From Candidatus Anderseniibacteriota bacterium (lineage in GTDB: Bacteria > Patescibacteriota > JAUYIX01), in the NCBI GenBank assembly GCA_046350855.1, contig JAXLZM010000001.1:153420-217419 (forward strand): 64,000 nucleotides of DNA, read 5' to 3'. The stretch's first letter is position 1. Each line of letters begins with the position of its first letter. Shown here in pieces: positions 1 to 57,196 of this stretch. Under the pieces are notes generated by a model. It was not told where the DNA came from, did no database searches, and saw only the letters and a list, made by a program, of their open reading frames with translations. The translations under genes and the position numbers were made by a program.

Positions 1-264
1 GCCCCCAAGGCACGGGTCAAAGCCACGACTTTTTCGAGGAGCGGGGTTTGCAGTCGTTTGAGTTCGTGAGTGATCGCTGTGCTCTCGGCCATAAACAAAA
101 TCCAATCGATATACTGGGCCCGATCCGGCGTGGCATCGATGGTCCCGGGGACCAAACTGTCGGCCGGTTGGTGCTTAAAGCGGCGACGTTCGTTTTGCTG
201 TTCGGCCAAGAGAGGTGGATCCTGCTGGTCAGGTTTACCGGCGATTTTGGGTGCGTCTGGCATG
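1..264 (-). CDS. Partial hypothetical protein (5' part only; runs off window start)
   Basis: Own translation of the minus strand from ATG at 264..262 gives 88 stop-free codons (MPDAPKIAGKPDQQDPPLLAEQQNERRRF...). It lies 17 bp downstream of the lepB stop and is absent from the ORF track because its stop is outside the window. Confidence 0.4.
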
Positions 265-280
265 GAGAGCTAGCGTGAGA

Positions 281-925
281 TTAGTAAGTTGGTTTTTTGA
301 TAGTCTGGGCCCGATCAAAGGGAAACGCTCTAAACCAGGCGCGGCCCACGATATCGGAGCGCTTGATGGGCCCCCAGGAGCGTGAGTCGCTCGAGGCATC
401 ACGGTTATCCCCCAGAACATAATACTCATCCGGTCCGAGCACAACCTCGATATTGGCGGCCAGGATCGAGAGCGGGGTCTGCATCAGATAGCTGGACTCG
501 TTTAAAACGATGTGTTCGCCATCGTGCACCGTAATTTTTCCGTCCTTAATAGTGACCGTCTCGCCCGGCAAACCGATTAAACGCTTGATAAAAAACTGGC
601 TGCGATCTTTAGGATAGTGAAAAATCACGACTTCGCCTCGCTCCGGCTCTCTAAACCTAAAGGAGATCTCATCGACTACTAGGTAATCGTTATCCAAAAA
701 GTTGGGGTCCATACTGTCGCCGTCGACTTCAAAGGGTTGAAACACAAAGACACGAATGGGCACAATAATGACCAACGCAACGAGGACAACTTTGGCGACT
801 TCTAGGGCAAAACGTCCGGCCGCCCCAAAAAAGCGGCCGACTGGGCCAGCTTGACTCAAACGCGGCCGACCACGCGCACCGACGCTGCGGGGCGGTACAC
901 TATAGTCTCCCTGATTCTTTGGCAT
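281..925 (-). CDS. lepB: Signal peptidase I
   Basis: S26 family motifs GDSMDP and GDNRDASSDSRSWGP, with an N-terminal TM segment. Confidence 0.85.
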   Translation of the reverse strand: MPKNQGDYSVPPRSVGARGRPRLSQAGPVGRFFGAAGRFALEVAKVVLVALVIIVPIRVFVFQPFEVDGDSMDPNFLDNDYLVVDEISFRFREPERGEVVIFHYPKDRSQFFIKRLIGLPGETVTIKDGKITVHDGEHIVLNESSYLMQTPLSILAANIEVVLGPDEYYVLGDNRDASSDSRSWGPIKRSDIVGRAWFRAFPFDRAQTIKKPTY

Positions 926-1034
926 AGGCAGAACCGTATAGTACCAGCGTGGGACGCGGTTGTGAACTGCGGGTGATAGTGCCGACGCACGCGGTTGACT
1001 CCTGTCTCCAAAATCAGTATAGTACTGCTCACGA

Positions 1035-2480
1035 ATGACGAGCTATCCGAGCCTCCACGCGCTCCGTAAAAAGGACGCGAAGTCTGCCGTCGCGCAAGCA
1101 ACCGCCTCGACTAAAAAGTCCCTGGCGAGCAATCCTCTCGTGGTCAAAAAGCTCAAGCGGACCAAGAGTAAGCGCACCGTACTCAAGGGTGTCTTGGTTG
1201 CGGCTGCCGTCTTGTTTGTCTCGAGCACGGTCTTTGCCGCTCGTATGCTCACCGTCGGTAACGGCATCTTTGGCGGCAACTCGAGCGACGGTTTTTTTGC
1301 GCAGCTGCGGGCGCTTTTTGGCGATAGCCAACCGCTCATCGGCGAGTCAGAGGATCGGGTCAATATTTTGCTACTCGGGATCGGGGGTGAGGGCCACGAC
1401 GGTCCCAACTTGAGCGACACGATCATCGTGGCTTCGCTCAAGCCCAGCACGGGTGAGGCGGCTATGCTCTCGATCCCGCGCGATTTGTTCGTCCAAATTG
1501 AGGGCTACGGCCAAAACAAAATCAACTCAGCCTATGCGTTTGGGGAGGAACTAGGCTACCCCGGCGGTGGCGCGCAGCTCGCGACTAAAACGATCGAGCA
1601 AGTTACTGGCCTCAAGATTCCCTATTACGCCGTAGTAGATTTTAAGGGCTTTGAGAAAATCGTGGATGATTTGGGTGGCTTAGACGTCACGATCCCACGC
1701 GCTTTTTACGACAACTTACATAAGATCCAGTACGAGGCCGGCCCGACTCACTTTGATGGCAGTAAAGCACTCTATTTTGTGCGGGCTCGCTACGTGGATG
1801 GCCCCGAGGGCGGCGACTTTGCTCGGGCCGGCCGCACCCAACTCATCGCCAAAGCGCTCCAACAAAAAGCCTTGGCACTCAACCCAGTGGCGGACATCGG
1901 TACCATCACCAGCATTTTGCAAAATCTGGGTGATCACGTCCGCACCAATCTCCAACCGCCAGAGCTGCGACGTGTCTATGAGCTGGTGCACGTCCTCTCT
2001 CTCGAGCAAATTCACAATAAAGTGATCGATGAGTCCGAGACTAACTTGGTCTATGGCTCAAGTGTACCCATGGGTGGGCTCAACATCTCGGTGCTCTTGC
2101 CTAACGACGCCACCTTTGGAGCGATCCAGCAGTACGCCGCTAGCGTGTTCGAAAAAGAGCCACCCAAACCCGAGAACGCCACACTGGAAGTCCAAAACGG
2201 GACAGAGACCACCGGGGTGGCGGCAAGTTTTAGTGAGATGGTCACGCTCGATACGCCGGTCATCGCCACGAGTAATGCGGAGCGCTCGGATTACGACGAA
2301 ACCTTTATCGTGGACAACACCGGCGGCACGGTTCCCAATGCGCTCAAGCAGTTACAGGACAAATTACATGCCCTGCATATCGATGCGCGGGTTTTGACGG
2401 CCGCAAGTTACAAAAATGAGTCCGACGCGGATCTGCTGCTAGTACTCGGTCAAGATTTTATCGACGCAACCGCCGAGTAG
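1035..2480 (+). CDS. LytR-CpsA-Psr (LCP) family cell-envelope phosphotransferase
   Basis: N-terminal TM anchor; LCP core NILLLGIGGEGHDGPNLSDTIIVASL...MLSIPRDLFVQIEGYG. Confidence 0.8.
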   Translation: MTSYPSLHALRKKDAKSAVAQATASTKKSLASNPLVVKKLKRTKSKRTVLKGVLVAAAVLFVSSTVFAARMLTVGNGIFGGNSSDGFFAQLRALFGDSQPLIGESEDRVNILLLGIGGEGHDGPNLSDTIIVASLKPSTGEAAMLSIPRDLFVQIEGYGQNKINSAYAFGEELGYPGGGAQLATKTIEQVTGLKIPYYAVVDFKGFEKIVDDLGGLDVTIPRAFYDNLHKIQYEAGPTHFDGSKALYFVRARYVDGPEGGDFARAGRTQLIAKALQQKALALNPVADIGTITSILQNLGDHVRTNLQPPELRRVYELVHVLSLEQIHNKVIDESETNLVYGSSVPMGGLNISVLLPNDATFGAIQQYAASVFEKEPPKPENATLEVQNGTETTGVAASFSEMVTLDTPVIATSNAERSDYDETFIVDNTGGTVPNALKQLQDKLHALHIDARVLTAASYKNESDADLLLVLGQDFIDATAE

Positions 2481-2545
2481 CACTCCTAATCGCGCGGTGG
2501 TGCCGGGCTTGCAAAAGTGGGCAAAATAGGGCAAACTGACCCGTC

Positions 2546-3106
2546 ATGCCAGTGCGTACTAAAAAAATTGTGCTTGTGGGTCTTGGCAACCCCGGCAAAA
2601 AGTATGAGTTCACCCGACACAATCTCGGTTTTAGAGTCTTAGAGCGCGTGCGGGGCGAACTCAGTCTACCAGCGTGGTCACTCCAAAAAGCGTTGGCTGC
2701 AGAGATCAGTGACGGCCGCGTGGATGGCGCCCAAGTAATTTTAGTGCGACCGCAGACTTTTATGAATGAGTCGGGTAAGTCGATCAAAGCCGTGCTCAAA
2801 AAATTTGGCGCGCGCCTGACCAACCTGTGGGTCGTGCACGACGACAAAGACCTGCCGCTTGGTCAGCTCAAGAGCAAGGCCGGGAGTTCCTCGGCCGGAC
2901 ACCGGGGCGTGGACTCATTGATCAGCGAGCTTGGGAGCAACAATTTTAAGCGCTACCGCATGGGGATTTGGGCGGATTCGGCCGAGGGTATCGAGACCGA
3001 CAAGTTTGTCATCACCAAGTTTTTGCCGGAGGAGGAACCGACCGTGCGCAACTTTATCGACAAAACCACCGAGCAACTCATTAGCGATCTCGGCCTCAAG
3101 CGTTAA
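2546..3106 (+). CDS. pth: Peptidyl-tRNA hydrolase
   Basis: LVGLGNPGKKYEFTRHNLGF N-terminus; length 186 aa. Confidence 0.9.
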   Translation: MPVRTKKIVLVGLGNPGKKYEFTRHNLGFRVLERVRGELSLPAWSLQKALAAEISDGRVDGAQVILVRPQTFMNESGKSIKAVLKKFGARLTNLWVVHDDKDLPLGQLKSKAGSSSAGHRGVDSLISELGSNNFKRYRMGIWADSAEGIETDKFVITKFLPEEEPTVRNFIDKTTEQLISDLGLKR

Positions 3107-3127
3107 AGAGCTACAGAATTGTAAGCG

Positions 3128-3162
3128 AAAAAAGAAAAGCGCGCCGACCGCAGTCAGCGCGC
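3128..3162 (-). terminator. Putative intrinsic terminator for the minus-strand small gene ending at 3182
   Basis: Perfect GCGCGC/GCGCGC stem (3139-3144 / 3157-3162) followed on the minus strand by TTTTCTTTTTT. Confidence 0.5.
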
Positions 3163-3311
3163 ACCTGGGAAATTGGATGAATCAATACAAGAAGAAGTAG
3201 TCCAGGACCTCGTCCAACTTCTTGTCGCGGGTGGAACGGAAATCGGCCCGTTTGCCCCCGCTCTGTACGTTCTGTGGAACGATCACGGGTGGCTGTTCAC
3301 GCTCCTGCGTG

Positions 3312-3575
3312 TCACTGGAGACGGGACTCTGCGATTGCTTTTCCATCGGTTGCTCCTGTGTAGAGGCCACTGCCTTTACAGTGTGGACACAGTTCGTACT
3401 GGCCTTTGAGGCGGAGATACGCAGTTTGGTTTGGTCCGACCTTGACTGGATCGAGACGCTCCACATAACAACTCCCCTTGCAGGTTGTGCAAGGCGGACT
3501 TTTCTCGAATTCACTCATGTGCATCCTCCCCAAAGTCCCACTGTTGGGCTGCATATAACCAGCGGTTATATGCAC
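3312..3575 (-). CDS. Small zinc-ribbon protein (CxxC...CxxC)
   Basis: PPCTTCKGSCY...YELCPHCKGSGLY four-Cys motif. The overlapping ORF 3182..3514 in another frame ends next to the terminator, so the gene may be a frameshifted 3182..3575 unit. Confidence 0.4.
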   Translation of the reverse strand: MHITAGYMQPNSGTLGRMHMSEFEKSPPCTTCKGSCYVERLDPVKVGPNQTAYLRLKGQYELCPHCKGSGLYTGATDGKAIAESRLQ

Positions 3576-3971
3576 TTAGCTGGTTGGAGGTAAAGGAGGA
3601 AACCCGCCAACCGGACTCAACAGCAGGACACTGGGGAAGATCTCGCTTTTAAATGTACCTCCTAGATGTGCCTTACGCGTGACAAACAAATGTCAGCTCT
3701 CATCGATCGGCCAAAGGGGCCTCTCGACCAGAGGAGCACACCACCGTAGCAAAAAACCAAGCGTGTGTCAACGATGGCTCAGTTAAGCCGACTTACCCCT
3801 AGCATGGCTGAACCACGCCACGTTTTTTTGGCTTTTTGCAGCCAAAAGCTACCTTGACTGAGAGACTATTTTATGCTAGCTTGGTTGGTCCAGTTCTAGC
3901 TCGCTCTCTCCCAACCTATTCCCCTATTCACCGCCCTACTGACTTGCCGGAGCACCGGCAGAAAGGTCGCC

Positions 3972-4715
3972 ATGAAGACGTTTGCCCATCTAATGCTGGC
4001 CCTAATCATCGGCTGCACCTGTACCTGGACGGCCAAGGCCGACAGCACGCTCGAGAAGGCCGCGCGCTCGACGCGCAAGTTCGTCCAGGAGCGACACGAG
4101 GAGCACAAGGAGCTCCTCAAGTCTCCACGACTGATCACGGTTCCTCAGGGACCGGAGTGCTACGACTATCCCCTGATCTACTTTCCGGAGGGCAGTCAGC
4201 GCACCAAGCGCGCCTACTACATCACGCGTCACTACCAGGCTTGGTCCCCCGGCTACGGGTATCGCCACTCGCGACACTACAGCGACTTCACCTTCCGCTT
4301 ACCACATTTTATCGTCCTGCTGGATGGCCGGCCGTACTGCGAGGTGGAGCGGAGTTTCGACTGCCAGTTCATCCTTGGTGACAGCTACTACAGCAGCGGA
4401 GCGTTTCGCCGCGACTACATCGTCGAGCGCTCGCACCAGATCTGGGATCAGGCCGCAGGTGCCAGTGAGCCCGAGTGGACCATCCTGCCCGGAGCGGTAC
4501 GACGCGACGTTCGGCCAAACTTACTGTTTGGTCCGGTCGACGCCTTGACGACGGCTTCCAAGCGCGCCGTCTGCCACAAGCACAACAACAGCGAAAAGTG
4601 CGTGGTGACTTTTGGTCCACTGACCGGAGGGATGCTCCGAGAAGTCGGAACCGTGACCGGTCCCGATGGACAGGAGCATACGGCCTATTGCCCTGAGGGG
4701 AATCGCTGCGAGTGA
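3972..4715 (+). CDS. Secreted Cys-rich protein (signal peptide; YC-x-C motifs)
   Basis: N-terminal signal peptide MKTFAHLMLALIIGCTCTWTAKA; motifs RPYCEVERSFDC and TAYCPEGNRCE. Confidence 0.6.
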   Translation: MKTFAHLMLALIIGCTCTWTAKADSTLEKAARSTRKFVQERHEEHKELLKSPRLITVPQGPECYDYPLIYFPEGSQRTKRAYYITRHYQAWSPGYGYRHSRHYSDFTFRLPHFIVLLDGRPYCEVERSFDCQFILGDSYYSSGAFRRDYIVERSHQIWDQAAGASEPEWTILPGAVRRDVRPNLLFGPVDALTTASKRAVCHKHNNSEKCVVTFGPLTGGMLREVGTVTGPDGQEHTAYCPEGNRCE

Positions 4716-4870
4716 TCCATGTATCACTCGTCGACGCTCCAGCTGACTACGGTCGGCTGGAGCTTTTCTTTATCTTGACAAAGACCAAGAATACGTGCAT
4801 CCTGTTCAGTCCCGAAAATTTCGAACGTTCATCTCGATACAATCGATATAACCGACTACCAGGAGGTGCT

Positions 4871-5524
4871 ATGTCCCGACGCAGCAGAGCGATGGTGTTC
4901 TGCCTGATTGCACAACTCAGCAACATGATTGGTCAAGCGGGCGAAAATCCCCTCAAGTCGTTGGAGATCAAGTACGAGCGTCACAAGCTCAGGGAGAACC
5001 GCGAAGAAGGCGCCGAACACGACATCGACTGTACTATCCGCAAGCGTGCGGAGGGTGCCTACTGCGTAGTCCATGAGACCACGGATCCTACGCGCTGCCC
5101 GACCCTCGCGCACGGCAACTGGAAAGGTGACGCCTGGACCACGTGCGTGCCGACGATCGATGACAAAGGGTTTGCCTACTGCGCCGAGCATGACCTCTAC
5201 ACGTGCTACCTGCTGCGATACTGGAGTCCCGAGTCGGACAGTGATTCGGCGATCGACCATGCGCCGGCAGAATGCAAAAAGGTCAACAGGGATGGCCGAC
5301 CCTACTGCGCTAAGCACGACACTTTTGCGTGTTTTACGCCGCGATTGGTTTGTCGGTTGCATCCGGGCAAACTGTGCGGCGTAGTGCGGGCTGGCTCACG
5401 AGAGAGCCCAGGAATGGTCCTCGTTGAGGACGGTGAAGAGTCCAAGCAAATCCCCGTATTGAGCTTGCTTGCGCCTAACGCTGCTACCCGCCACACCGCG
5501 TATATCTGGGTTGAACCACGGTAA
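4871..5524 (+). CDS. Cys-rich repeat protein with three (A/P)YC-x-x-HD/HE motifs; paralog-like to the upstream gene
   Basis: AGGAGG RBS 5 nt before ATG at 4871; repeats GAYCVVHETTDPTRC, FAYCAEHDLYTCY, RPYCAKHDTFACF. Confidence 0.6.
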   Translation: MSRRSRAMVFCLIAQLSNMIGQAGENPLKSLEIKYERHKLRENREEGAEHDIDCTIRKRAEGAYCVVHETTDPTRCPTLAHGNWKGDAWTTCVPTIDDKGFAYCAEHDLYTCYLLRYWSPESDSDSAIDHAPAECKKVNRDGRPYCAKHDTFACFTPRLVCRLHPGKLCGVVRAGSRESPGMVLVEDGEESKQIPVLSLLAPNAATRHTAYIWVEPR

Positions 5525-5586
5525 CCCTGTGGACGGTTGGACCAAATCTAAAACCCCGACGAGAAAACATCTCGCCGGGGTTCTTT

Positions 5587-6030
5587 TTAACCTTGATCCA
5601 TCTCGCGCTGTGGGACGTCCACCTCCGTAGTGCGACTCGGCGCGTCCAGGAGAACCGGAATCAGCTTTGGGTCCATCTCGTCATGCCGGAGGTTGCTCGT
5701 GATATTGGTAATGCCCGGCTCAAACAGCCTCCGCATCACGAGCTCCAAGACAGCAAAGTACTCGCTGTCCGTACGCTTGAAGTCGCGAGCGGCAGCAACG
5801 ATCTCGTTGAACATGTCTTCGGCAGCATGTTCGGTGCCGCGAGCATCTTCTATCGGACCTAGCCAGCTCACGTTGGTACGCGGGATCAGCACATCCAGAA
5901 TGTCCCGCGCGAGAAAAAAGCCCAACCGTCGATCGTATGCATCATTCTCGAGACGATGGACGCGGTCCACTACTTTTTCGACAAAGCGTTGCCGCTCGTA
6001 CTCGCGGCGTTCAATCGCAAGCATTCCCAT
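5587..6030 (-). CDS. Hypothetical protein
   Basis: 147-aa ORF with no recognised motif. Confidence 0.4.
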   Translation of the reverse strand: MGMLAIERREYERQRFVEKVVDRVHRLENDAYDRRLGFFLARDILDVLIPRTNVSWLGPIEDARGTEHAAEDMFNEIVAAARDFKRTDSEYFAVLELVMRRLFEPGITNITSNLRHDEMDPKLIPVLLDAPSRTTEVDVPQREMDQG

Positions 6031-6146
6031 AATTCGGGTCCTTTCTTCTAGAGAGAACTGGCTTTTCTCTAACGTGTTCTGCCAGGCACGTCAATGTTCA
6101 GCCAGTTGACGATGCACTAAATCCGAGGTATAGTGGTGGCAGTGTA

Positions 6147-9100
6147 ATGGAGCCTACGCATGTTTCTGCACTTGAGGCTCTAGTTTCTTCCGCCTACAAA
6201 AAAGCAACAAAGAAGCCCCAACGCCCCGCCGGAAAAGCCCTGCGCCTGGACGTGGGTGGCGTTACGGAAGCCGCTAGATCCTATCTCATCGCAGGGACCC
6301 CAAGTTTACGTCGGGGGCCCGTTTTGATCGTGACCAGCGATAACGAGCACGCCCAAATCTGGGAGAACGAGTTGCGTTTTTGGCTCAAGCGGTTGAACAC
6401 CGATACAAAGAGTGGCGATGGCGCTCAAGCCACGGCCGACCCCTTAGTCATCCGTTATGACGAACTCCCCGAGTCCGAGCAGCTCTCACAAGTACCAAGT
6501 TTACGTCGCTACAAAAATCTAGGGGTAAGTGGCCGTATGCTTGCCAACGAGTGGGCTTTTTTATCGTGCCGGTGCGTGGATTTGTCGAGCGACTCCCGGC
6601 GGTCGAGCGCTTTAAGGCCATGACCGTGCGGCTCTCGGTTGGTGACACGGCCAGCCAGTCTAAGGTCTTGCATGATCTTGAGGAGATTGGATACGAGCCA
6701 GCCGATGTCGCAACTACGGTTGGTACCTTTGCCCGGCGGGGTGAACTGTTGGAAGTCTACTCACCCCATGAGACGCATCCGGTACGGATTACGTTTGCGG
6801 GTTCGACCGTAGAGTCGATCGTGCATTTTGATATCGAAACTAAGAAACCGTTGGCTGAGACCAGCCAAGCTGCATCCGGTTCAACCACTGGCGTACAACA
6901 AATGCGCGCGGTACCGCTCAAGTTGCTGATGAGCCAGGGGCGGTTGATAAAATACTTGGGCGATCCGAGCAAATGGTCGGTCGTGATCGATGACCCAGAC
7001 GACCTCAAAGCCTCGATCGATCCGCTCGGTCTCAAAAATGAGCAGGAGTGGCGAGGACTGACTAAAGAGTTGGCCACGGCCGGCATGATTACCTTCCACG
7101 CTTTTTTGGAAGAGAAAACGGCCGACACGCACTTATTTAACTTTACGGTTCCTCCTTTGTTTAGAGGGCACTTGCCGAGTTTGCGTGAAGAGATCAAAGA
7201 GTTCCATCGTAAAAAATACGCTATCCGTGTGCTGACCGGTGATGCGGCCAAAATCCGCGCGTCATTAGATAGCTCGGTTAACTATGTCGACGTCGAGATG
7301 GTCTCCGGCAGTTTGCGGGAGAACTTAGCCGGCTTTAGAGATGGCACCGGTAAGTTGCTGGTCCTGACCGACCGAGAGATTTACGGACCAGAGTCGGTTC
7401 AGCCGGCAAAAATGCGCAAGGCTAAGCGTTTTGATCAGGCCTTTATTGGAGAACTCGAGCCGGGGCATTACGTGGTGCACGTCGATCACGGTATCGGGCG
7501 CTTTTTGGGAATGGTGCACAATTTGCTGTCCGGGATCGAGAAGGAATATTTTGTACTGCAGTACGCTGAGGGCGATCGGTTGTACGTGCCGGTCGAGGCG
7601 GCCGAGAAGTTGTCCCGTTATATAGGAGCGGCTAATCCGGTGATTCACCGCTTGTCCGAGACCTCTTGGATGCAAATCCGAGCGCAGCTTAAAGAGTCGA
7701 CCGAGAAGTTGGCTAAGGAGTTGCTGCAGTTGTATGCGGAGCGGCAGGTACGAGGTGGCATGCAGTTTAAGCCCGAACAAGCCATGGAGCGCGAGTTTGC
7801 TAAGACGTTTCCGTATGAGGAGACGCCGGATCAATTACGGGCTTGGCACGAGATTCAGTTGGATATGCAACGGCCGCGACCAATGGACCGACTCTTGGTC
7901 GGGTGATGTGGGCTTTGGCAAAACCGAGGTGGCTATGCGCACGTTGTTTAAGGCCGCGGTCAACGGCAAGCAAGCCGCGATCCTGGCTCCGACCACGATT
8001 TTGGCGGACCAGCACTACAAGAATATTACGAAACGCTTTTCGAGTTTCCCGTTTAGCGTGGGAGCACTGTCGCGCTTTCAAAGTCCCAAGGAGCAGCGCG
8101 AGACGATTGCCAAGCTGCGGGCTCGGCACGATCGATGTGGTCGTGGGCACGCACCGGCTACTCTCCAAGGATATTGAGTTTAAGGATCTAGGGAGTGGTG
8201 GTGGTGGACGAGGAGCAGCGCTTTGGGGTGGAACACAAAGAGCGCCTCAAAAAATTACGCTCTAATGTACACGTGCTTGTCACTTGTCAGCTACCCCGAT
8301 CCCGCGGACGTTGCAGTTCTCCCTGTCTGGTATCCGCGATATCTCAACAATCGAGACTCCCCCGCCCGGACGCTACCCGATCGAGACCAAAGTGGCCGTG
8401 TATGACGATCGCGAGATCAAAGCGGCCCTTGAGTTTGAACTCAAACGCGGTGGCCAGGCCTATATTTTGCACAATCGCGTGGAGACGATTGGTACCTTTG
8501 CCAAAAAAATTGCCAGCTTGGTGCCCAAGGCGCGGGTACGCGTGGGTCACGGCCAGCTCCCCGAGACCGAACTCGCCAGCGTCATGGAGGATTTTTACAA
8601 TCGTAAATACGACGTGCTTGTGGCCTCGACCATTATCGAGAACGGTCTTGATATCCCGAGCGTCAACACGATCATCGTGGACCAATCAACAAACTTTGGC
8701 TTGTCACAGTTGTACCAGTTGCGTGGTCGCATCGGTCGCGGCAACCAACGCGCCTACGCCTACCTCTTTTATAACCGCCAGGATCTTAAAGGTCCCGCTC
8801 GCTCTCGCTTGTTAGCGCTGCTCGAGGCTACCGAGCTTGGTTCAGGCTTCCAGATTGCATTGCGTGACTTGGAGTTGCGTGGTGCCGGTAACTTGCTGGG
8901 CGGCGAGCAGTCTGGTCAGATCAAGTCGGTCGGTCTCAATATGTATCTGCGCTTACTCCATCGCGCGGTTCAGGAGATTAAGACGGGTGTTAAGGAGACC
9001 CCGATTTTGGATGTGACCATTGATGTTCCTCTGCCGGCGTATTTCCCGGTTACCTATGTGCCGGATGAACGCGAACGCCTCTCGCTCTACCAGTTTTTGG

Positions 9101-9495
9101 CGAGCGTCACGGATCCTAAAAAGCTGGCCCAAGAAAAAGCGCAGCTCGGCAAGGAGCACGGCAAGCTGCCCGCACAAGCGACTAACTTCTTTAACCTGCT
9201 GGAATGGAAGCTGCTCGCCGCTAAAGCGCATGTACTCTCAATTACGACCAGTGGCGTGCGCTCGGGCGATGTCGCAGAGGGCTTGCTCACACTGGAGTTT
9301 GTCAGCGAGCCGCCTTATGGCCGCATCAATCGGGTTCTGACGGATGTAAGCCCGGCTTGGCAACTCAAGGACAACCTTATGCGCATTACGATCGGCACGC
9401 TCGGAGGCGATGATCCGCGCAGCTGGACCGCTAAGCTCGAGCAGACCTTACGTATTTTGTCAGAGCCGGTGGCGGACGAAAAACAAAAGGCCTAA
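6147..9495 (+). pseudogene. mfd: Transcription-repair coupling factor Mfd, interrupted by at least five frameshifts
   Basis: Mfd segments in order across four frames: N-terminal module (6147..6623), RID/translocase N-part (6551..7906), Walker [11 protein letters not shown] (7913..), [11 protein letters not shown] (in 7843..8265), VVVDEEQRFGVEHKE (in 8195..8815), SATPIPRTL...TRCD C-part (8284..9495). Breaks at about 6555 (T6 run), 7900, 8125, 8195 and 8280. Confidence 0.8.
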
Positions 9496-9523
9496 AAAAG
9501 AAGCCCCTCGTAAGACAAGGGGC
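9496..9523 (-). terminator. Intrinsic terminator (minus strand) overlapping the stop of 9523..9930
   Basis: AGCCCCT/AGGGGCT 7-bp stem followed on the minus strand by TCTTTTTT. Confidence 0.55.
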
Positions 9524-9930
9524 TAGCGCGTAGCAAGAAGTGTGGGTTCGAGCTGGTTGATCAATACCATCGCCGAGGAGTGGTACTGTTTTTCTCGTAC
9601 GATACTCAGGAGCTGATCCAGCCGTGCGCGTCGAGCAGCCATCTGAGCCGAGGGCGCCGGGGACGGATACGAGAGCTCCAGGATCCCTTTGCACTTGTAC
9701 AGCTGCAGGTAGTACTGATCATTGATGGATTGTTCAGCAGTTAGGTTCAGGGACTCCTGTCGCAAGCACAGGTACTCGAGGGCCGCTTGCAGGAGCTGGT
9801 TGTCAAACGAGACGTTGTCCATGCGAGTCTGGATCCAAGCCATCTCTCGATTGATCCCATACAGCTGCTGACGCATCCGTACCTCGAGTAGGCAGATGCC
9901 GATGATAACACTCACAAAGAGCCATCCCAT
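9523..9930 (-). CDS. Membrane-anchored coiled-coil protein (possibly FtsB/DivIC-like)
   Basis: N-terminal TM WLFVSVIIGICLL followed by a heptad-like region. Confidence 0.45.
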   Translation of the reverse strand: MGWLFVSVIIGICLLEVRMRQQLYGINREMAWIQTRMDNVSFDNQLLQAALEYLCLRQESLNLTAEQSINDQYYLQLYKCKGILELSYPSPAPSAQMAARRARLDQLLSIVREKQYHSSAMVLINQLEPTLLATR

Positions 9931-10087
9931 TCCGTTGACCTCCCGTTTGTTCCGTGAGGCGAGTCTGCTCCAGAGCAGTAGTCAGGTCAAGTTGCTCTCT
10001 CAAGTAAAACGCGCTATAGCAAGTTAAATTCACACCACCGCCGCTTTTTCTTATCTTTTCTTAAGCTGACTTTGGTAAGACGGATAC

Positions 10088-10981
10088 ATGCTGAGCCGTT
10101 CTGCCATTCTCAAAAAATCGGGGATCAAGGTTATTTGCCGTGATCAGAGAGACTTTCCACCTCAATTACGCTTGATCGCTGAGCCACCTGCCCTCCTCTA
10201 TATACAAGGAGATCCTAGTGTACTGCTACGCCCCTCGGTCTCGGTCGTCGGTTCGCGGCAAGCAAGTGAGTACGGCAAGCGACAAACCAGACAATTTACT
10301 GACTACTTAGCTAAACGAGGTGTCGTAATCGTCTCTGGCTTGGCCTACGGAATCGACCTGACCGCACATCAGACGGCGATCAGCTCCGGCCCTTCCGTCG
10401 CAGTGATTGCAGGCGGACTCGATGTCGCCCTGATGTCTTGGCAGGAGGAGTTGGCTAAAAAGATTATTAGAGCAGGTGGAGCTATCGTCTCTGAGTACGC
10501 CCCGGGTGAACCAGCTCTCAAATATCATTTTCCCGAGCGTAATCGCATTATCGCCGGACTCTCCCCCGTGACACTTGTGAGCGAAGCTCGTGAACACAGT
10601 GGTGCCTTGATCACCGCTCGCCTTGCGGTCGAATCCGGTCGGACCCTCATGTGTATTCCGCACGATCTTGAGCGGTCAACCGCGCAGGGCTCAAACCGTC
10701 TATTGCGGGATGGCGCAAACGTGGCTATCGCACCACAGGATGTGCTGCAGGAGCTTACACGTCATTTATCAGAGCAAGAGGCTCTAGAGCTCTCAAAAGC
10801 AGATCCTTCGCCAGCAGCGGGGATTTTAAAAGCGCTCAAAAAACCGCACTCGGTTGAGGATCTCGTCACAGAGATGCAGCGTTCTGCCGGTGCCCTATTG
10901 ACCGAATTAACCGAGCTGGAATTATCCGGCAAAATTAAGCGCCTGACGGACGGTCGGTTTGCGCGAGTGGAGAGTGAGTGA
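10088..10981 (+). CDS. dprA: DNA-processing protein DprA/Smf
   Basis: Rossmann-like core VVGSRQASEYGKRQTRQF...IVSGLAYGIDLTAHQ. Confidence 0.85.
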   Translation: MLSRSAILKKSGIKVICRDQRDFPPQLRLIAEPPALLYIQGDPSVLLRPSVSVVGSRQASEYGKRQTRQFTDYLAKRGVVIVSGLAYGIDLTAHQTAISSGPSVAVIAGGLDVALMSWQEELAKKIIRAGGAIVSEYAPGEPALKYHFPERNRIIAGLSPVTLVSEAREHSGALITARLAVESGRTLMCIPHDLERSTAQGSNRLLRDGANVAIAPQDVLQELTRHLSEQEALELSKADPSPAAGILKALKKPHSVEDLVTEMQRSAGALLTELTELELSGKIKRLTDGRFARVESE

Positions 10982-11003
10982 CGGGGTGGCAAAGTTGACA
11001 GTA

Positions 11004-13277
11004 ATGCTCGCACACCGTAAGGTCTCAACCATTGTGTCGTCACTCGTAATCGTCGAGTCACCAACAAAAGCAAAAACGATCGGCAAATTTTTGGGCCGCG
11101 GCTACACCGTTAAGTCCAGTTTTGGCCACGTGCGTGACTTGCCTAAGAGCAAGATGGGTATTGATATTGAACATGGATTTGAGCCCGACTACGTGATTCC
11201 GGTCCGCGCTAAAAAAGTGATCACGGACCTGCGCGCACAGGCCAAAAAAGCCGACACGATCTATCTGGCAACCGATGAAGACCGCGAAGGAGAAGCGATC
11301 GGTTGGCATTTGATGACCGCGCTCAAGTTGGCTAAAGATAAGACCAAGCGCATCGTGTTTCATGAGATCACCAAGCGCGCCATCGACGAGGCTCTCAAAA
11401 ATCCTCGCGATTTGGACGCACACTTGATCGACGCCCAGCAAGCCCGACGGGTACTAGATCGCCTGGTAGGATACGAATTGTCGCCATTTTTGTGGAAAAA
11501 AATTAAGTACGGCCTCTCGGCCGGCCGCGTACAGTCAGCCGCGGTGCGCTTAATCGTTGACCGGGAGCGCGAGATCGAGAAGTTCAAAGCGGATGAGTAC
11601 TGGACCATCGAGGCCGAACTCGAGAAAAAAGGTGTCAAACCTACCGTTGCGGCACACTTGGTTAAACGTGCTGGCAAAACTCTCGAAAAACTCGCTATCA
11701 AAAATAAAGCTACTGCCGACGAAGTCACCGCCGCACTTAAGGGCGCGTCGTTTGAGGTCAGCGAGATTTCACAAAAAGAAAAATCGATGTCCCCGTCCGC
11801 GCCATTTACGACTTCGACCTTGCAACAGGATGCTTCGCGTCGCCTGGGCTACTCGGCCAAGCAAACCATGATGCTCGCGCAGCAGCTCTATGAGGGTATC
11901 GAGCTGGGTACTGAGGGTTCGGTCGGTTTGATTAGCTACATGCGTACCGACTCGGTTAACTTGGCAGAACAAGCCCTGGCAGAAGCCAAAGAAGTTATTG
12001 GTAACGAGTTTGGTAGTGAGTTTACGGCGGCCGCACCACGCCGTTACAAAACCAAATCAAAGAGCGCTCAAGAAGCACACGAAGCCATCCGCCCAACCAG
12101 CTTTACTCGTACTCCGGAGAGCATTAAGCAATATCTTGAGCCTCGCCAGCACAAATTGTATGACCTGATTTGGCGTCGTGCGCTTGCCTCACAGATGCCG
12201 GATGCGCGCTTTAACTCGACCACCTTAGATATTACCGCTGGTGAGTTTGTGTTTAGAGCTAATGGCTTAGTTATTACCTTTGCGGGTTTTCAAAAAGCAC
12301 TCGGGCCCGCCGCCAGCTCCAAAGAGACTGAACTACCCAAACTCGCTAAAGGTGACAAGCTCGTACTCGTTGGCACGGATGCACTCAAGGGGGTGCAGCA
12401 CTTTACGCAGCCACCCGCGCGCTACAGCGACGCCACCCTCGTCAAAGCTATGGAAGAGTTTGGTATCGGTCGTCCATCTACCTACGCTCCAACGATCTCG
12501 ACCATCCAAGACCGCGGCTACGTCGAAAAAGTCGAGAAGCGCTTTAAGCCCACCGAGATTGGTCGCCTGGTTGATGATGTGCTCGTTAAGCACTTTCCCA
12601 AGATTGTGGACCTGACCTTTACCTCGCAGATGGAAGAAGACTTGGACTTGATCGCCGAGGGTAAAAAAGAGTGGGTTCCTATTATTAAAGCGTTTTACGA
12701 TCCATTCCACGCTAATCTCAAAGCCAAGGATAAGGCCGTTACCAAAGAAGAACTCACGACCGAGAAGTCTGACGAAAAGTGCGAAAAATGCGGCAAGCCC
12801 ATGGTGATCAAGATGGGTCGTTTTGGAAAGTTCTTAGCCTGCACTGGTTATCCCGACTGCAAGACCACTCGCCCACTCAAAGCCGAGCGCGAGGCCCAAG
12901 CCAAAATGGAGCAAGAACTCTCTGGCGAAAAATGCCCTGAGTGTGGTTCAGCCATGGTGATTAAACGCGGACGCTTTGGGACTTTTTTGGGCTGCAGCAC
13001 CTATCCCAAGTGCAAAGGCATCAAGCGTATCGAGAAAAAAACGGGTGCCAAGTGCCCTGAGTGTGGTAAAGGCGAGATCATCGAGAAGCGCAGCCGCAAA
13101 GGTCGCACCTTTTACGCTTGCAACAAATACCCTGAGTGTGAGTTTGCCCTCTGGAACAAACCGACCGGTAAAACGTGTCCAAAGTGTAAAAGCTTGGTGG
13201 TCTACGCCGCCAAGGGCCAAGTGCGCTGCTCTAGCAAGGAGTGCGACTACAAGGCCGAGACCGAGCAGCCGGCCTAA
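11004..13277 (+). CDS. topA: DNA topoisomerase I with multiple C-terminal C4 zinc ribbons
   Basis: TOPRIM LVIVESPTKAKTIGKFLG; catalytic region; four CxxC..CxxC zinc ribbons at the C-terminus. ORF-track start 10959; the ATG at 11004 avoids overlap with dprA. Confidence 0.9.
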   Translation: MLAHRKVSTIVSSLVIVESPTKAKTIGKFLGRGYTVKSSFGHVRDLPKSKMGIDIEHGFEPDYVIPVRAKKVITDLRAQAKKADTIYLATDEDREGEAIGWHLMTALKLAKDKTKRIVFHEITKRAIDEALKNPRDLDAHLIDAQQARRVLDRLVGYELSPFLWKKIKYGLSAGRVQSAAVRLIVDREREIEKFKADEYWTIEAELEKKGVKPTVAAHLVKRAGKTLEKLAIKNKATADEVTAALKGASFEVSEISQKEKSMSPSAPFTTSTLQQDASRRLGYSAKQTMMLAQQLYEGIELGTEGSVGLISYMRTDSVNLAEQALAEAKEVIGNEFGSEFTAAAPRRYKTKSKSAQEAHEAIRPTSFTRTPESIKQYLEPRQHKLYDLIWRRALASQMPDARFNSTTLDITAGEFVFRANGLVITFAGFQKALGPAASSKETELPKLAKGDKLVLVGTDALKGVQHFTQPPARYSDATLVKAMEEFGIGRPSTYAPTISTIQDRGYVEKVEKRFKPTEIGRLVDDVLVKHFPKIVDLTFTSQMEEDLDLIAEGKKEWVPIIKAFYDPFHANLKAKDKAVTKEELTTEKSDEKCEKCGKPMVIKMGRFGKFLACTGYPDCKTTRPLKAEREAQAKMEQELSGEKCPECGSAMVIKRGRFGTFLGCSTYPKCKGIKRIEKKTGAKCPECGKGEIIEKRSRKGRTFYACNKYPECEFALWNKPTGKTCPKCKSLVVYAAKGQVRCSSKECDYKAETEQPA

Positions 13278-13333
13278 CCGCGTGCGACGGCGTAATAGAC
13301 AGTCGGGTAACCCCGGAGTAGGATCCGAGTAGG

Positions 13334-15514
13334 TTGTATATGACGCCATTTACTACAACCACACTCGAAAAACGTTCGACCATCACGATCGAAGACGTTG
13401 TGCGCATGGCACGCGAGCGCAACCCCGGGGCGGATCTTCCACTGATCCGCCAGGCCTACGAGTTTGCCGAGGCGGCCCATCGCGGCCAAACCCGTGAGAC
13501 GGGTGAGCCGTATATTATCCATCCGGTGCATGTGGCCTACACCATCGCGCAGTTGCGTCTCGGCACTACCGCCATTATGGCCGCGCTACTCCACGACGTG
13601 CGCGAGGACACCTCTCCGGCCTACTCCGAGCAAATCGCTCGGCGCTTTGGCGAGGCAACTAACTTTTTAGTACAGGGCGTCACTAAACTTTCTAAGGTTC
13701 GTAAACTGCGGGAGAACACCGGTTCGATCGAAGACCTACGCACGATCTTTTTGGCCATGAGTCGCGATATCCGCGTGATCATTATTAAGCTGGCCGATCG
13801 TTTACATAATTTACAAACCCTCTCGGGCCTCGACACCGAGCGACGTCTGCGCATCTCTCGCCAAACCTTGGACATCTACTCACCGATCGCTGATCGCCTC
13901 GGTATGGGTGACATCAAGGGCCAACTCGAGGATTTAGCTTTTGATTACGCTTTGCCCGAGCAGGCCACCCTGGTGCGCTCCCTCGTCAAAGACGCCTACA
14001 CAGAGCGGGCGCGCTACTGCGAGACGTTACGTCAGGCCGTCACCCAAGAGCTGCGACGCAATGCTATCCCGGTTATCGACGTACACGGTCGAGCCAAACG
14101 ACTTTACAGTCTCTACCTCAAGTTGCAGCGCTACAACAACGATATCAACCAGATTTACGACTTGGTGGCCGTGCGTGTGGTGGTACCCACTATCGAAGAT
14201 TGCTACAAAGCGCTCGGGGTTGTGCATCGGCGCTGGCGACCCCTGGTCGGTAAGATCAAGGATTACGTGGCAACGCCCAAAGCAAACGGCTATCAATCCC
14301 TCCACACCACCGTCATCACTGACGAGGGCAAGTTTGTCGAGGTGCAGATCCGGACGAACAGCATGCACGAGCGGGCCGAGCGGGGAATCGCCGCCTCCTG
14401 GTCCTATGCGGAGGCCAAGCGACAAGATCCGGGTGCTCTCGCCGCAGCTTTAGCGGACGAGCACGATATTACCTGGGTCAAGCAACTCGCCCATTGGCAG
14501 CAAGACATCGACACACCCGAGGAGTTTTTCCAGACGCTGCGCTCTGACTTTTTTAAAAACCGCATTTTTTGCCTCACCCCCAAGGGCGAGGTCATTAATC
14601 TCCCGGAGGGCGGCACCCCGATCGATTTTGCCTATTGCATTAGGCGTTCTCTCGGTAACCGGGCCGTGGATGCGCGCGTCAACGGGGTACGCCGGCCACT
14701 GGATTATGCCCTCGGTAACGGTGATGTGGTCTACATCGAACTCGGTCCCGAGTCGCATACGCCAAAACGCGAGTGGCTCGACTTTGTTAAAACCAACAAC
14801 GCGCGTCACGGAATCAAACAGTGGTACGCGCACCTTAGCGCCGAGCACGCTGTTACGACCGGCCGCACCCTCCTTGCTAAAGAGTTACACGAGCTCCTGG
14901 GTCGTTCGATCGAGAGCCTTCAAGCCCAGGAGGTCCGCGAGTATCTCAGTCAGCACGGCTACCGCACCATGGATGAACTCTACGCCGCCGTGGGTAAAGG
15001 CGAGCGCAACCCGCGTCAGGTCGTTAAACGTATCTTTGCCGAAGACCGCATCGACCTGACCGTACCGGTCAAGCGCCAGCTTAACGTCAAAATTGAGGGA
15101 CAGCTTCACCCCCAAGCGGTACGTGCGCGCTGCTGCCGCCCGATCGAGGGCGACGCGATCGTAGGTGTGCGCCACGGCGCGCGCGTCCTGGTGCATCGCA
15201 CCGAGTGTCATACCCTGCACGGTATCCCGCTCCTGCAACGCCTCAAGGCCGCCTGGATCTTAGATGCAGCGCGCACGTACCGAGTCTGGATCGAGGTCCA
15301 GGTGACCACCTATACGGGCATGTTACGTGACATCGCAGATGTCTGTGCCCAGGGCGCTATTCCGATCCATGACATCGTTGTGCGGCGCCGCCCCACAGAA
15401 ATCAGTTCGGTCAGTATTTTAGCGGAGATCAAAGACGCGGATCAGCTCAGTATGCTGATCCGTAAGTTGCACTCACTCCCTAAGGTTACGGTCGTCCACC
15501 GGCGACACTCCTAG
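13334..15514 (+). CDS. rel: Bifunctional (p)ppGpp synthetase/hydrolase (RelA/SpoT family)
   Basis: HD motif HDVREDT, synthetase domain, TGS/ACT C-terminus; 726 aa. Confidence 0.9.
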   Translation: MYMTPFTTTTLEKRSTITIEDVVRMARERNPGADLPLIRQAYEFAEAAHRGQTRETGEPYIIHPVHVAYTIAQLRLGTTAIMAALLHDVREDTSPAYSEQIARRFGEATNFLVQGVTKLSKVRKLRENTGSIEDLRTIFLAMSRDIRVIIIKLADRLHNLQTLSGLDTERRLRISRQTLDIYSPIADRLGMGDIKGQLEDLAFDYALPEQATLVRSLVKDAYTERARYCETLRQAVTQELRRNAIPVIDVHGRAKRLYSLYLKLQRYNNDINQIYDLVAVRVVVPTIEDCYKALGVVHRRWRPLVGKIKDYVATPKANGYQSLHTTVITDEGKFVEVQIRTNSMHERAERGIAASWSYAEAKRQDPGALAAALADEHDITWVKQLAHWQQDIDTPEEFFQTLRSDFFKNRIFCLTPKGEVINLPEGGTPIDFAYCIRRSLGNRAVDARVNGVRRPLDYALGNGDVVYIELGPESHTPKREWLDFVKTNNARHGIKQWYAHLSAEHAVTTGRTLLAKELHELLGRSIESLQAQEVREYLSQHGYRTMDELYAAVGKGERNPRQVVKRIFAEDRIDLTVPVKRQLNVKIEGQLHPQAVRARCCRPIEGDAIVGVRHGARVLVHRTECHTLHGIPLLQRLKAAWILDAARTYRVWIEVQVTTYTGMLRDIADVCAQGAIPIHDIVVRRRPTEISSVSILAEIKDADQLSMLIRKLHSLPKVTVVHRRHS

Positions 15515-17437: not shown

Positions 17438-17521
17438 GCCGAAGTGGCGGAATGGCAGACGCACGCGACTCAAAATCGCGCGGAGCAATCCATGAGGGTT
17501 CGACTCCCTCCTTCGGCACCA
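17438..17521 (+). tRNA. tRNA-Leu (anticodon CAA), CCA encoded
   Basis: 7-bp acceptor GCCGAAG/CTTCGGC; anticodon loop CUCAAAA; long variable arm; T-loop GGTTCGACTCC; 3' ACCA. Confidence 0.85.
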
Positions 17522-26970: not shown

Positions 26971-27792
26971 ATGCCAGCTCGTTGGACTTTAGCTGAAGAA
27001 AAGAAACTGTATAGGGGGTTACATTTCTTATACGTCAAGAAAAATAAGACCATTGGTGAGATAGCGCATATCTTGAATTTAGATCCGACTTCCGTATATG
27101 ACCGTCTTGTGCGACTAAATATCCCGAGATCACGCGCGTCAAAAACAAGATACAATAATCAACGTACTGACGTCGGGATACCAACAACGTATTCACCCGA
27201 GCTTGCAGAATTTATCGGCATTCTCTTAGGAGATGGGCACCTAACATCAACTCAGGTCACCGTTACGTTGGGTAAAAAAGAAAAAAGATACGCAGAGTAT
27301 GTTGCAGACTTAATTAAATCGATATTTAGAATATACCCTGCGATAATTAAAAATCTGGATGGGGATCTGACCGTATACTTTGGATCAACAGCTGTGGTGA
27401 GGTGGTTTCTCGAAATGGGGTTGGTCCACAACAAAGTGCGCTCTCAGGTGGACGTACCGGCGTGGTGTTTTTCTAAGCGCACGTTCATTCGCTCGGTATT
27501 GCGCGGCTTGATTGATACCGATGGTTCGGTGTATACCTTACGTCACGGCGTACAAATATCATTCTGTAATCGATCGTACCCACTCCTAAAATCTGCGCGT
27601 TTGATGATGCAGCAATTAGGTTTAAGACCATCCAAGATTAGTTGTTACAAGGTATATCTGACACGTCAAAAAGATCTGGGCAACTATCTAAGACAGGTCG
27701 GGTTCAGTAACAGAAAACATTTGAAGCGTCTCCTCGTTTTTTCTCAGTTGCATGGGCAGGTACTGGAAGCGGCCAAACCGGACAGACTGTAA
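26971..27792 (+). mobile_element. Free-standing double-motif LAGLIDADG homing-endonuclease gene with N-terminal HTH
   Basis: Motifs LAEFIGILLGDGHL and LRGLIDTDGSV; HTH GEIAHILNLDPTSVYDRLVRL; ORF markedly AT-rich compared with its flanks; 3' end overlaps tRNA-Tyr. Confidence 0.8.
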
Positions 27793-27841
27793 ATCTGTTG
27801 GCTTCACGCCTTCGGGGGTTCGAATCCCTCCCTGCCCACCA
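27754..27841 (+). tRNA. tRNA-Tyr (anticodon GUA), long variable arm, CCA encoded
   Basis: Acceptor GGGCAGG/CCTGCCC; anticodon stem ACAGA/TCTGT with loop CUGUAAA; T-loop GGTTCGAATCC; 3' ACCA. Confidence 0.85.
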
Positions 27842-27844
27842 GTG

Positions 27845-28219
27845 TTATACCCAAACGCGCGCTTTATTTTTGATTTCTTTTTCGCGAAAAGCCTCTTCTA
27901 GATCGAGGTCGTACTTGTTGGCGATCGCGCAGAGATAAATCAAAATGTCGGCCAGCTCTTCTTTGACCGAGCCGACCTTAGAAGTGGGATCGATCTTAAT
28001 GGTCTTCTCCATTTTGCGCACGGCTTTAAAGAGCTCGCCAATTTCTTCTCCGAGCAAGAGACACTTTTGGAGCGCGGTCTCATTGCTGAATCCGCGTTGA
28101 CGCTCGAGTTCACTGACGTAGCGTTGCACCTCAGCCAGAGTTGGATTGGACGGTAGTTCAAGCACCATCGCTTTGGCTTTCTTTAAGTAACTGGACAAAG
28201 CGCTGCTTAAGTTTGGCAA
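27845..28219 (-). CDS. MazG-like nucleotide pyrophosphohydrolase
   Basis: EEIGELFKAVRK...EELADILIYL MazG/NTP-PPase helices. Confidence 0.7.
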   Translation of the reverse strand: MPNLSSALSSYLKKAKAMVLELPSNPTLAEVQRYVSELERQRGFSNETALQKCLLLGEEIGELFKAVRKMEKTIKIDPTSKVGSVKEELADILIYLCAIANKYDLDLEEAFREKEIKNKARVWV

Positions 28220-45780: not shown

Positions 45781-46176
45781 GGGGATGATCGGCTTCGAGA
45801 GCGATCGTGTGTTGTTCGGGCGTGTACGAGTGGGATGTGCCACTCGCAAATCAATCGCATCACTCAACAAATGCTAAGTCATTTGTAAGCAAAGCGAGCG
45901 ACTACGTTCGTAGCCTCTCCGCTCTGCCAGCCGTTGCCTAACTGTAGGTAACAGCCATCTCCCGTAGGCTCCCCCGTGGTTTACGATCAGAGGTGTTATC
46001 TTTGCGGGGTTGGTGTACAGCAGGTTTCTGGCTGAACATCGAGACTTTGTGAAACTCGCGTCGCCATTTTTTGCCGCACTTTGAGCGGTGACGTCAGATA
46101 CCAAGCGCGGAGAGTACACGTGGACGACCAACATGCTGTTAGCTCCACGCGGGTTCGATTCCCGCCATCTCCACCC
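45781..46176 (+). ncRNA. ssrA: tmRNA (SsrA), standard one-piece form
   Basis: 5' GGGGAUGAUCGGCUUCGAGAGCGAU matches the tmRNA 5' consensus. 3' ACGCGGGUUCGAUUCCCGCCAUCUCCACC is a tRNA-like T-arm and acceptor. A G3:U70 pair is present. Putative tag ORF ends ...ALPAVA-UAA near 45945. Confidence 0.85.
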
Positions 46177-46446
46177 CAATCTGACTTTTCCGACTATCCG
46201 ATAAGTTTTCTCGTACTCCGTTGGCGGCCCGCAGGGCCGCCAACGGTTTACGTTTGGGCGGAAAAATATCGGAACGTCGTATCCTGGTGCATCTCTACCG
46301 TACCGCTCGAACGTATTTTCTCAAAATCGTTTGAGGCCGGTGATAGCGAGAACGTAGTCAGATCCGCGGCGCGGCAGGACTGGGGGTCAAGGGGGAAGGA
46401 CTGCCGCGCCGCGGATCGGTTGCAATTTAGGTACTTTTCATAAAGT

Positions 46447-46842
46447 ATGTTCGAGCAGCGCAGTAAATGCGCACCAAGTTTAATCGCTTACAACAACAAG
46501 ATAATGTTGCACCAAATGAAGTTGCGTCCTGGCCCGTTCAAAAAAATTGTCGGAGGTCAGAAAATTATAGAGTCAAGGTTATTCGATGAAAAACGTCAAA
46601 AAATCAGGGTTGGTGATAAAATTGAATTTACATCCAATGATAACTCGGATAAAAAAGTTACTACAAAAGTAGTCGCGCTCTTTTTGTTCAAGTCTTTTGA
46701 TGATCTTTTTTCTGAATTAGATCCTCAACTGTTCGGAGGTTCATCAAAAGATGCATTACTCAATGAAATAGAACAATTCTATTCTCCGGCTGAACAAGAA
46801 AAATACGGCGTTGTTGGTATAAAAATACAAGTTGATAAATAG
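46447..46842 (+). CDS. Stand-alone ASCH (PUA-like) domain protein; strongly AT-rich gene
   Basis: ASCH-like core KLRPGPFKKIVGGQKIIESRLFDEKR...GDKIEF; GC far below flanking DNA; alternative start at 46504. Confidence 0.65.
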   Translation: MFEQRSKCAPSLIAYNNKIMLHQMKLRPGPFKKIVGGQKIIESRLFDEKRQKIRVGDKIEFTSNDNSDKKVTTKVVALFLFKSFDDLFSELDPQLFGGSSKDALLNEIEQFYSPAEQEKYGVVGIKIQVDK

Positions 46843-46845
46843 AAA

Positions 46846-46876
46846 AAGCCCAACCGGATTACCAGCTGGGCTTGAA
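46846..46876 (-). terminator. Hairpin terminator between convergent genes
   Basis: AAGCCCA/TGGGCTT stem followed on the minus strand by TTTTTC. Confidence 0.45.
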
Positions 46877-46878
46877 GA

Positions 46879-51259: not shown

Positions 51260-51288
51260 GGAAGTGTGCTCATGATAGCGAAAGTCGT

Positions 51289-51330
51289 CCCAAAAGAAAA
51301 AAGACCGTTCCCCTCCAGAGAAACGGTCTT
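51289..51330 (-). terminator. Strong intrinsic terminator between the tandem paralogs
   Basis: 9-bp stem AAGACCGTT/AACGGTCTT followed on the minus strand by TTTTTTCTTTT. Confidence 0.7.
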
Positions 51331-51336
51331 GTTGTA

Positions 51337-55797: not shown

Positions 55798-55917
55798 GAG
55801 AGAATGATTTCTATGCCTATTAAAAGCAAAAGCAGTATAAGAGCAATGAGCAGACCAGATCGCTCGCCACGCTTTGAGCGACACATTCCACCGCAACACA
55901 GCACTGGGTCACAGGTC

Positions 55918-56942: not shown

Positions 56943-57196
56943 GAACGCGCCATGATCGAGATAATGATATGCACCAAAACCAGTAGAATGGTGAGCCAGG
57001 CAAAAAGTTTGTGTGCTGCCGTAAATTGAAACCACCCATAGCTATCTTTTTGGTCGCGTCCGGGTCGTCCCCCGCGCCAGGGCAAGCGGTTGCGTGCCCA
57101 CGGCATCACAAAACAGGTCGTAAAGTTAAGTACGAGCGCAAGGGCCGCTAGCCGACCGCTCCACAGGGTAAGTTCATGGAGGAGCTTGGTACTCAT
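56939..57196 (-). CDS. Small integral membrane protein (two His 14 residues apart in a TM helix)
   Basis: GGAGAA RBS; AAHKLFAWLTILLVLVHII. Confidence 0.5.
   Translation of the reverse strand: MSTKLLHELTLWSGRLAALALVLNFTTCFVMPWARNRLPWRGGRPGRDQKDSYGWFQFTAAHKLFAWLTILLVLVHIIISIMARS

Follow-up and report, generated by a model that had tools for sequence, protein, structure and literature searches.

In Escherichia coli and Bacillus subtilis, the transcription-repair coupling factor Mfd (TIGR00580) combines a UvrB-homology module, the CarD/TRCF RID, a RecG-like SF2 motor and a C-terminal TRCF domain, in this order. The mfd gene described here, from a metagenome-assembled genome (MAG) of a Candidatus Andersenbacteria bacterium, encodes a protein with the same order of modules when its indels are removed, and this repaired protein has in common with the known proteins the motor motifs GFGKT, DEEQ, SAT and QLRGRIGRG and the TRG-type motif 'LRGAGNLLGGEQSG'. 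The locus as deposited differs from them in having no single uninterrupted ORF, with no fragment reaching the family cut-off.

Predicted proteins cut short by indels are a recognised problem of consensus sequences from long-read MAGs (PMC9262707). Split genes of long-read or mixed-strain MAGs, the subject of IDEEL-type tests and of frame correction (PMC9262707; proovframe, 10.1101/2021.08.23.457338), resemble this mfd in that single-base indels split a conserved gene, one homopolymer is under-called and the pieces are annotated as separate proteins. Unlike errors spread genome-wide, however, the indels here lie in one 3.3-kb gene and are mostly insertions outside homopolymers. The locus also resembles the young pseudogenes of host-restricted or reduced bacterial genomes, with which it shares multiple frameshifts, a non-essential repair gene as the target and an intact ortholog in relatives; it differs from them in that neither raised non-synonymous change nor stop codons are seen, and in that its indels are biased towards insertions and clustered. 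Bacterial pseudogenes are usually deletion-biased. The breakage of mfd is an ordinary kind of event on either reading.

The gene lies within a 64-kb stretch of DNA, which was analysed at its full length and is referred to here as the window. From the ORF list and translation of the three forward frames, mfd was resolved into six coding segments, whose frames (position modulo 3) are 0, 2, 0, 1, 2 and 1:

6147..9495, + strand, complete mfd (transcription-repair coupling factor) locus with five frame changes
6147 to ~6556, + strand, segment 1, frame 0
~6551-7903, + strand, segment 2, frame 2
7902-8123, + strand, segment 3, frame 0, from Walker A to '...IAKLRA'
8125-8193, + strand, segment 4, frame 1, unannotated, 23 residues
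8195-8278, + strand, segment 5, frame 2, unannotated, VVVVDEEQRFGVEHKERLKKLRSNVHVL, with helicase motif II
8284-9492, + strand, segment 6, frame 1

After training on the remaining long ORFs of the window, an HMM of codon usage switched frame within mfd at 6550, 7867, 8117, 8193 and 8291, and revealed no unexplained same-strand frame switch outside mfd over the whole 64 kb. The preliminary description of this DNA had reported at least five frameshifts in mfd, with breaks at about 6555, 7900, 8125, 8195 and 8280; the ORF list, the translation and the HMM agree with these positions, and the five frame changes found correspond to at least six indel events, the minimum being five single-base insertions and one single-base deletion. 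It had also spoken of four reading frames, which has to be corrected to six segments in the three existing forward frames, four being the number of annotated CDS. Its statement that four breaks fall within 400 bp over the region of helicase motifs I-II is borne out, since all breaks but the first, with five of the six events, are located inside 7900-8290 (~390 bp). Walker A (GFGKT), motif II (DEEQ) and motif III (SAT) lie in this stretch, and breaks 2-5 fall between and beside these catalytic motifs of the helicase.

The MAG record annotates mfd as four separate proteins:

6147..6623, + strand, fragment 1, 158 aa, MFO0704519.1 'hypothetical protein U0517_00890', true Mfd to ~6556 only
6566..7906, + strand, fragment 2, 446 aa, MFO0704520.1 'CarD family transcriptional regulator'
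7935..8177, + strand, fragment 3, 80 aa, 'hypothetical protein U0517_00900'
8284..9495, + strand, fragment 4, 403 aa, MFO0704522.1 'helicase-related protein'

Fragment 2 contains the UvrB-interaction region, D3 and the RNAP-interacting domain, and fragment 4 runs from motif III onward through Helicase_C and the TRG motif to the TRCF C-terminal domain. When compared with the NCBIfam equivalog TIGR00580 mfd (cut-off 800 bits), fragments 2, 3 and 4 scored 231, 72 and 413 bits, respectively, all of them under the cut-off, and fragment 1 gave no match to this model. Removal of the indels resulted in a protein of 1114/1115 aa, with no internal stop codon in the repaired frame, that scored 894.1 bits. 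The Pfam domains of the repaired protein were as follows:

residues 161-241, UvrB_inter
residues 437-493, CarD_TRCF_RID
residues 560-722, DEAD
residues 764-865, Helicase_C
residues 961-1035, TRCF

This is the canonical arrangement, in agreement with the earlier observation that all Mfd modules are present in the right order. Alignment with 16 homologs revealed that the catalytic motifs GFGKT, DEEQ, SAT, QLRGRIGRG and LRGAGNLLGGEQSGQ are all kept.

Each of the 12 close homologs, with identities of 66-86%, is an ordinary Mfd encoded by one ORF; ten of them are full length (1069-1117 aa), and two are partial at contig ends. The repaired protein is 86% identical to one of the intact homologs (P0001) over 100% of its length, and this identity is even along the gene. 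In the homologs, the neighbourhood of mfd (His-tRNA ligase, signal peptidase, LytR, Pth, ..., mfd, dprA, topA, relA, parB, parA) follows the order seen in the window. A comparison with mfd of related genomes had been proposed as a check in the preliminary description, and its outcome is that 12 of 12 close relatives carry an intact gene in the same gene order. Protein-guided scans of GTDB genomes and JGI metagenomes recovered relatives at 86%, 81% and 70% only, with no conspecific mfd sequence among them, and an exact 42-nt mfd pattern had no match in these two collections. Likewise, exact look-ups of the 403-aa, 135-aa, 147-aa and guessed 290-aa partial products in the contig index recorded none, and when the 74 aa from break 2 to break 3 were used as a protein query, only the MAG's own 80-aa CDS was matched. 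A 240-aa sub-region of the protein as query gave only distant short proteins, in a search whose hits were apparently limited to about 1.75 times the query length. Nothing usable on mfd pseudogenes was found in the literature.

The level of constraint on the protein was determined at the 510 sites that are invariant in the 10 full-length relatives. The repaired protein presents three unique changes at these sites, in comparison with 2-24 unique changes for the relatives when each was left out in turn and tested likewise. Of these three changes, P136W is also present in an intact allele from a near-identical strain (described below), and S712T stems from the arbitrary choice of repair at break 5, leaving at most one lineage-specific change, P421A. 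The repaired protein shows no signs of relaxed selection, which points to purifying selection up to the present.

The individual breaks were analysed by aligning the repaired protein to the 16 homologs and by comparing its codons with those of the two closest intact genes (L001 and L003):

6557..6562, + strand, break 1, T6 run, net -1
7900..7904, + strand, break 2, CGGGT, net +1
8123..8124, + strand, break 3, gcTCggc, net +1
8190..8195, + strand, break 4, ctAGGGAGtg, net +1
8276..8289, + strand, break 5, perfect 7-bp tandem CTTGTCA CTTGTCA, net +2

At break 2, where frame 2 ends in a TGA stop at 7904-7906, deletion of any of the five bases results in the same 14-residue peptide, the alternative codons gtc/gtg and ggt/ggg being synonymous. 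Deletion of either T or C at break 3 restores Ala (gcc or gct) followed by GTIDVVVG. At break 4, deletion of A, of any G or of the second A leads to FKDLGVVVVDEEQ, and deletion of G8195 leads to ...GMVVVDEEQ. Every relative encodes L-S-L-S in 12 nt at the position of the tandem of break 5, which is best explained, on the basis of this alignment, by two putative single-base insertions 7 bp apart, one in each Leu codon (ctt/ctg or ctg/ttg).

A common feature of the five +1 insertions is that, in all five, either of two adjacent different bases can be deleted with the same amino acid as the result. This is the pattern that would be expected if both alleles of a synonymous SNP had been written into the consensus. 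Such a position has a null probability of 0.46 per random insertion, which gives ~0.02 for five out of five. For the clustering of five events out of six in 390 bp, P is ~0.005 if positions in the gene are taken as uniform. These statistics were chosen after the data had been seen and are individually modest, but they agree in direction.

Evidence from a near-identical strain was obtained from the Logan assembly of SRR26348421, in which a contig of 14,169 bp (L005) aligned to window positions 1-7062 with 99.77% identity and 15 SNPs. The single gap in this alignment is at break 1, where the contig has T7 and the window T6. The Logan mfd is open for 305 aa up to the contig end and reads ANEWAFFIVPVRGF at break 1, identical to the repair; this conspecific comparison covers break 1 only. 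Since the contig differs by 15 SNPs and comes from a slightly different strain, a genuine polymorphism between T7 and T6 is conceivable. Inside mfd (6649-6971) there are seven of these SNPs, in comparison with eight in the remaining 6.1 kb; five of the seven are synonymous, and the two non-synonymous ones lead to replacements at variable columns. Six SNPs form a dense patch:

6649..6691, + strand, patch of 6 SNPs over 43 bp, window versus Logan strain, 5 of them synonymous

This patch marks strain heterogeneity or recombination inside mfd. A second contig of the same assembly (L004) aligned to 10031-14811 with 99.4% identity, nine SNPs and two indels, both of them non-coding. The Logan assembly leaves a gap, ending at 7062 within mfd and resuming in the next recovered contig from 10031. 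In addition, no Logan member was found in the four mfd fragment clusters or in that of the 135-aa ORF downstream of mfd; the DprA, LytR, Pth and 247-aa ORF clusters each have one. The density of SNPs in mfd, the gap and the missing cluster members suggest that, in this neighbourhood, the mfd region is the spot that varies between strains and is hard to assemble.

Outside mfd, about 40 further ORFs of the window were scanned, and wherever Pfam gave a match, in about 30 ORFs, the profile was covered essentially in full, as in SHMT (3-399/399), TatD (1-253/253) and MsrA (2-153/153). Full coverage was also observed for IleRS, LeuRS, MetRS, ArgRS, a Tyr/Trp-tRNA ligase, the RNR large subunit, an RsmI-like methylase, RecO, an M16 peptidase and an AI-2E transporter. 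No coding indels were detected in DprA, TopA and RelA in comparison with the independent contig, and ~55 kb of coding sequence beyond mfd are without frameshift. The Pfam coverage and the HMM over the 64 kb agree with the preliminary description in that the neighbouring genes are intact. The same applies to its exclusion of uniform random sequencing error: the window contains about 156 homopolymers of at least 6 nt, including 35 of at least 7 nt, and the T6 run of mfd alone lies at a frame break. Because the window is clean beyond mfd, any error process must be strictly local. Pfam scans detected no uvrA, uvrB or uvrC within the 64-kb window.

Altogether, these data suggest that mfd is probably an ordinary, functional-looking gene, whose six indels would be consensus errors of the MAG in a strain-heterogeneous segment. 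Reads of two or more haplotypes, differing densely within mfd, may have been collapsed in the assembly. At several synonymous SNP positions both alleles would then have been kept side by side during consensus building or polishing, adding one base each time, and the T7 run would have been miscounted as T6 at break 1; gene callers would subsequently have cut mfd into four CDS. The preliminary description had left two alternatives side by side, genuine pseudogenisation and a locally mis-assembled or strain-heterogeneous segment. The second is favoured by the T7 run and open frame of the Logan strain, the SNP patch together with the contig end in mfd, the lack of signs of relaxed selection, the insertions at synonymous positions, the insertion bias and the tight clustering; the first is less favoured. 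In short-read assemblies, indel consensus errors are rare, which would count against an artefact if the MAG is of this kind. Also against it, indels limited to one gene and to non-coding DNA are equally expected from selection on real mutations. Homopolymer error of a general kind was discarded as the only cause, since ~155 other homopolymers of at least 6 nt coincide with no frame break and just one of the six events is a homopolymer deletion.

Loss of the gene in this strain, as a genuine and very recent pseudogene in which one indel inactivated mfd and later indels were tolerated while sister strains kept it intact, is possible but rather unlikely. The frameshifts stand in the deposited record, with the gene as four CDS, and indels in one gene among ~50 intact neighbours are what neutral decay after a first hit would leave. 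The other indels between the window and the Logan strain are non-coding only, with a non-coding indel:SNP ratio of 2:2, as fits real indels filtered by selection; furthermore, mfd is dispensable in laboratory-studied bacteria, and genomes of the candidate phyla radiation (CPR) are reduced. On the other hand, the six indels are accompanied by at most one lineage-specific change at the 510 invariant sites and by no stop. Given that the strain comparison reflects purifying selection, the inactivation would have to be much younger than the ~0.2-0.7% divergence between the strains, so that six independent events would have had little time to occur. The excess of insertions (five, with one deletion) is opposite to the usual deletion bias, all events but one fall within 390 bp, most of them outside homopolymers, and two identical insertions are just 7 bp apart. 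Finally, the closest independent sequence, the Logan contig, is intact at break 1, the sole break that it covers. If the indels are real, the clustered and insertion-biased events might come from a single error-prone synthesis tract.

A chimeric join inside mfd of contigs from different strains or species is very unlikely. Strain heterogeneity is evident within the gene, in line with such a join, but a join would not produce single-base shifts at five places, and the gene shows an even level of identity to P0001 throughout. Chimeric mis-assembly was rejected on the grounds that collinearity with L001 and L003 is unbroken across mfd and its flanks. It is more improbable still that programmed ribosomal frameshifting or transcriptional slippage at each break keeps mfd expressed. 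There is a superficial likeness of break 2 to a +1 site (GGG UGA U, with Gly kept on the change from GGG to GGU), and polymerase slippage is conceivable on the T6 run of break 1; against this, break 3 (GCU C GGC) offers no re-pairing, and five events in one mRNA would leave a negligible amount of full-length product. Since all 12 close orthologs, and at break 1 the Logan allele, lack the shift sites, programmed frameshifting was rejected.

In practice, the four database proteins should be joined into one Mfd. The locus is in this respect a quality flag, as one Mfd recorded as four unrelated-looking proteins pollutes protein databases, and the split annotation could prompt the false claim of a CPR lineage without transcription-coupled repair. 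Extra bases at synonymous SNP positions in a strain-variable patch could serve as a signature of MAG consensus errors. If the six indels are consensus errors, the organism itself would make a normal Mfd of 1114 aa, in which the RID would bind stalled RNA polymerase, the RecG-like motor would translocate on DNA and the UvrB-homology module would recruit UvrA. Should the six indels prove genuine, which is rather unlikely, a single Andersenbacteria strain would very recently have become devoid of Mfd while its ~99.8%-identical sisters keep it. Transcription-coupled repair would then be lost in the window strain, and one CPR population would be naturally polymorphic for this repair pathway and for Mfd-dependent mutagenesis.

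The sequence of mfd in the window was compared with that of the near-identical Logan strain (assembled from SRR26348421). The two strains are 99.8% identical, and six SNPs, five of them synonymous, fall within 43 bp of the gene (6649-6691), a patch that resembles a short stretch of recombined or mosaic sequence. In addition, Mfd residue 136 (codon tgg, 6552-6554) is Trp in the window as well as in Logan's intact allele, at a position where Pro is invariant in 10 relatives; this codon lies immediately upstream of the T run.

Features of the window outside mfd were as follows.

9523-9930, minus strand: small ORF of 135 aa between mfd and dprA, no Pfam hit
17438-17521: tRNA-Leu(caa)
26971-27841: free-standing LAGLIDADG_3 homing-endonuclease-like ORF, 273 aa
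45781-46176: tmRNA gene, tag peptide AKSFVSKASDYVRSLSALPAVA
55918-56541 and 56487-57035, minus strand: two adjacent ORFs, no Pfam hits

At the site of the 135-aa ORF the two closest relatives with intact mfd carry other ORFs each time (151 aa in L001; 77 and 258 aa in L003), and a counterpart was not found in the Logan sample. On these grounds, the mfd-dprA spacer appears to be a strain-variable spot. Further downstream, the window lacks 20 bp present in Logan contig L004 immediately 3′ of the topA stop codon (13275), and a few bases past this gap has G2 vs G3 (13288); both differences are non-coding.

The tRNA-Leu(caa) gene is 100% identical to that of L001 across 87 bp, against only about 70-75% for the flanking genes. 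The LAGLIDADG_3 ORF lies in a low-GC stretch (0.447 in 27001-28000 vs about 0.55), and its 3′ end overlaps tRNA-Tyr(gta) (27754-27841); the relative L003 has a LAGLIDADG_3 ORF too, there adjoining parA. Lower GC was likewise observed around the tmRNA gene (0.46-0.49 in 46001-48000).

The two adjacent minus-strand ORFs fall within a stretch with a strong excess of A over T on the plus strand (55001-57035, AT skew 0.17-0.30). On the minus strand at 50459-52188, two ORFs predicted by the longest-ORF rule, of 367 and 283 aa and both lacking Pfam hits, share a 226-nt overlap. Since the codon HMM sets their boundary at the upstream stop (51337-51357), this overlap looks like an over-extended start and not a frameshift.
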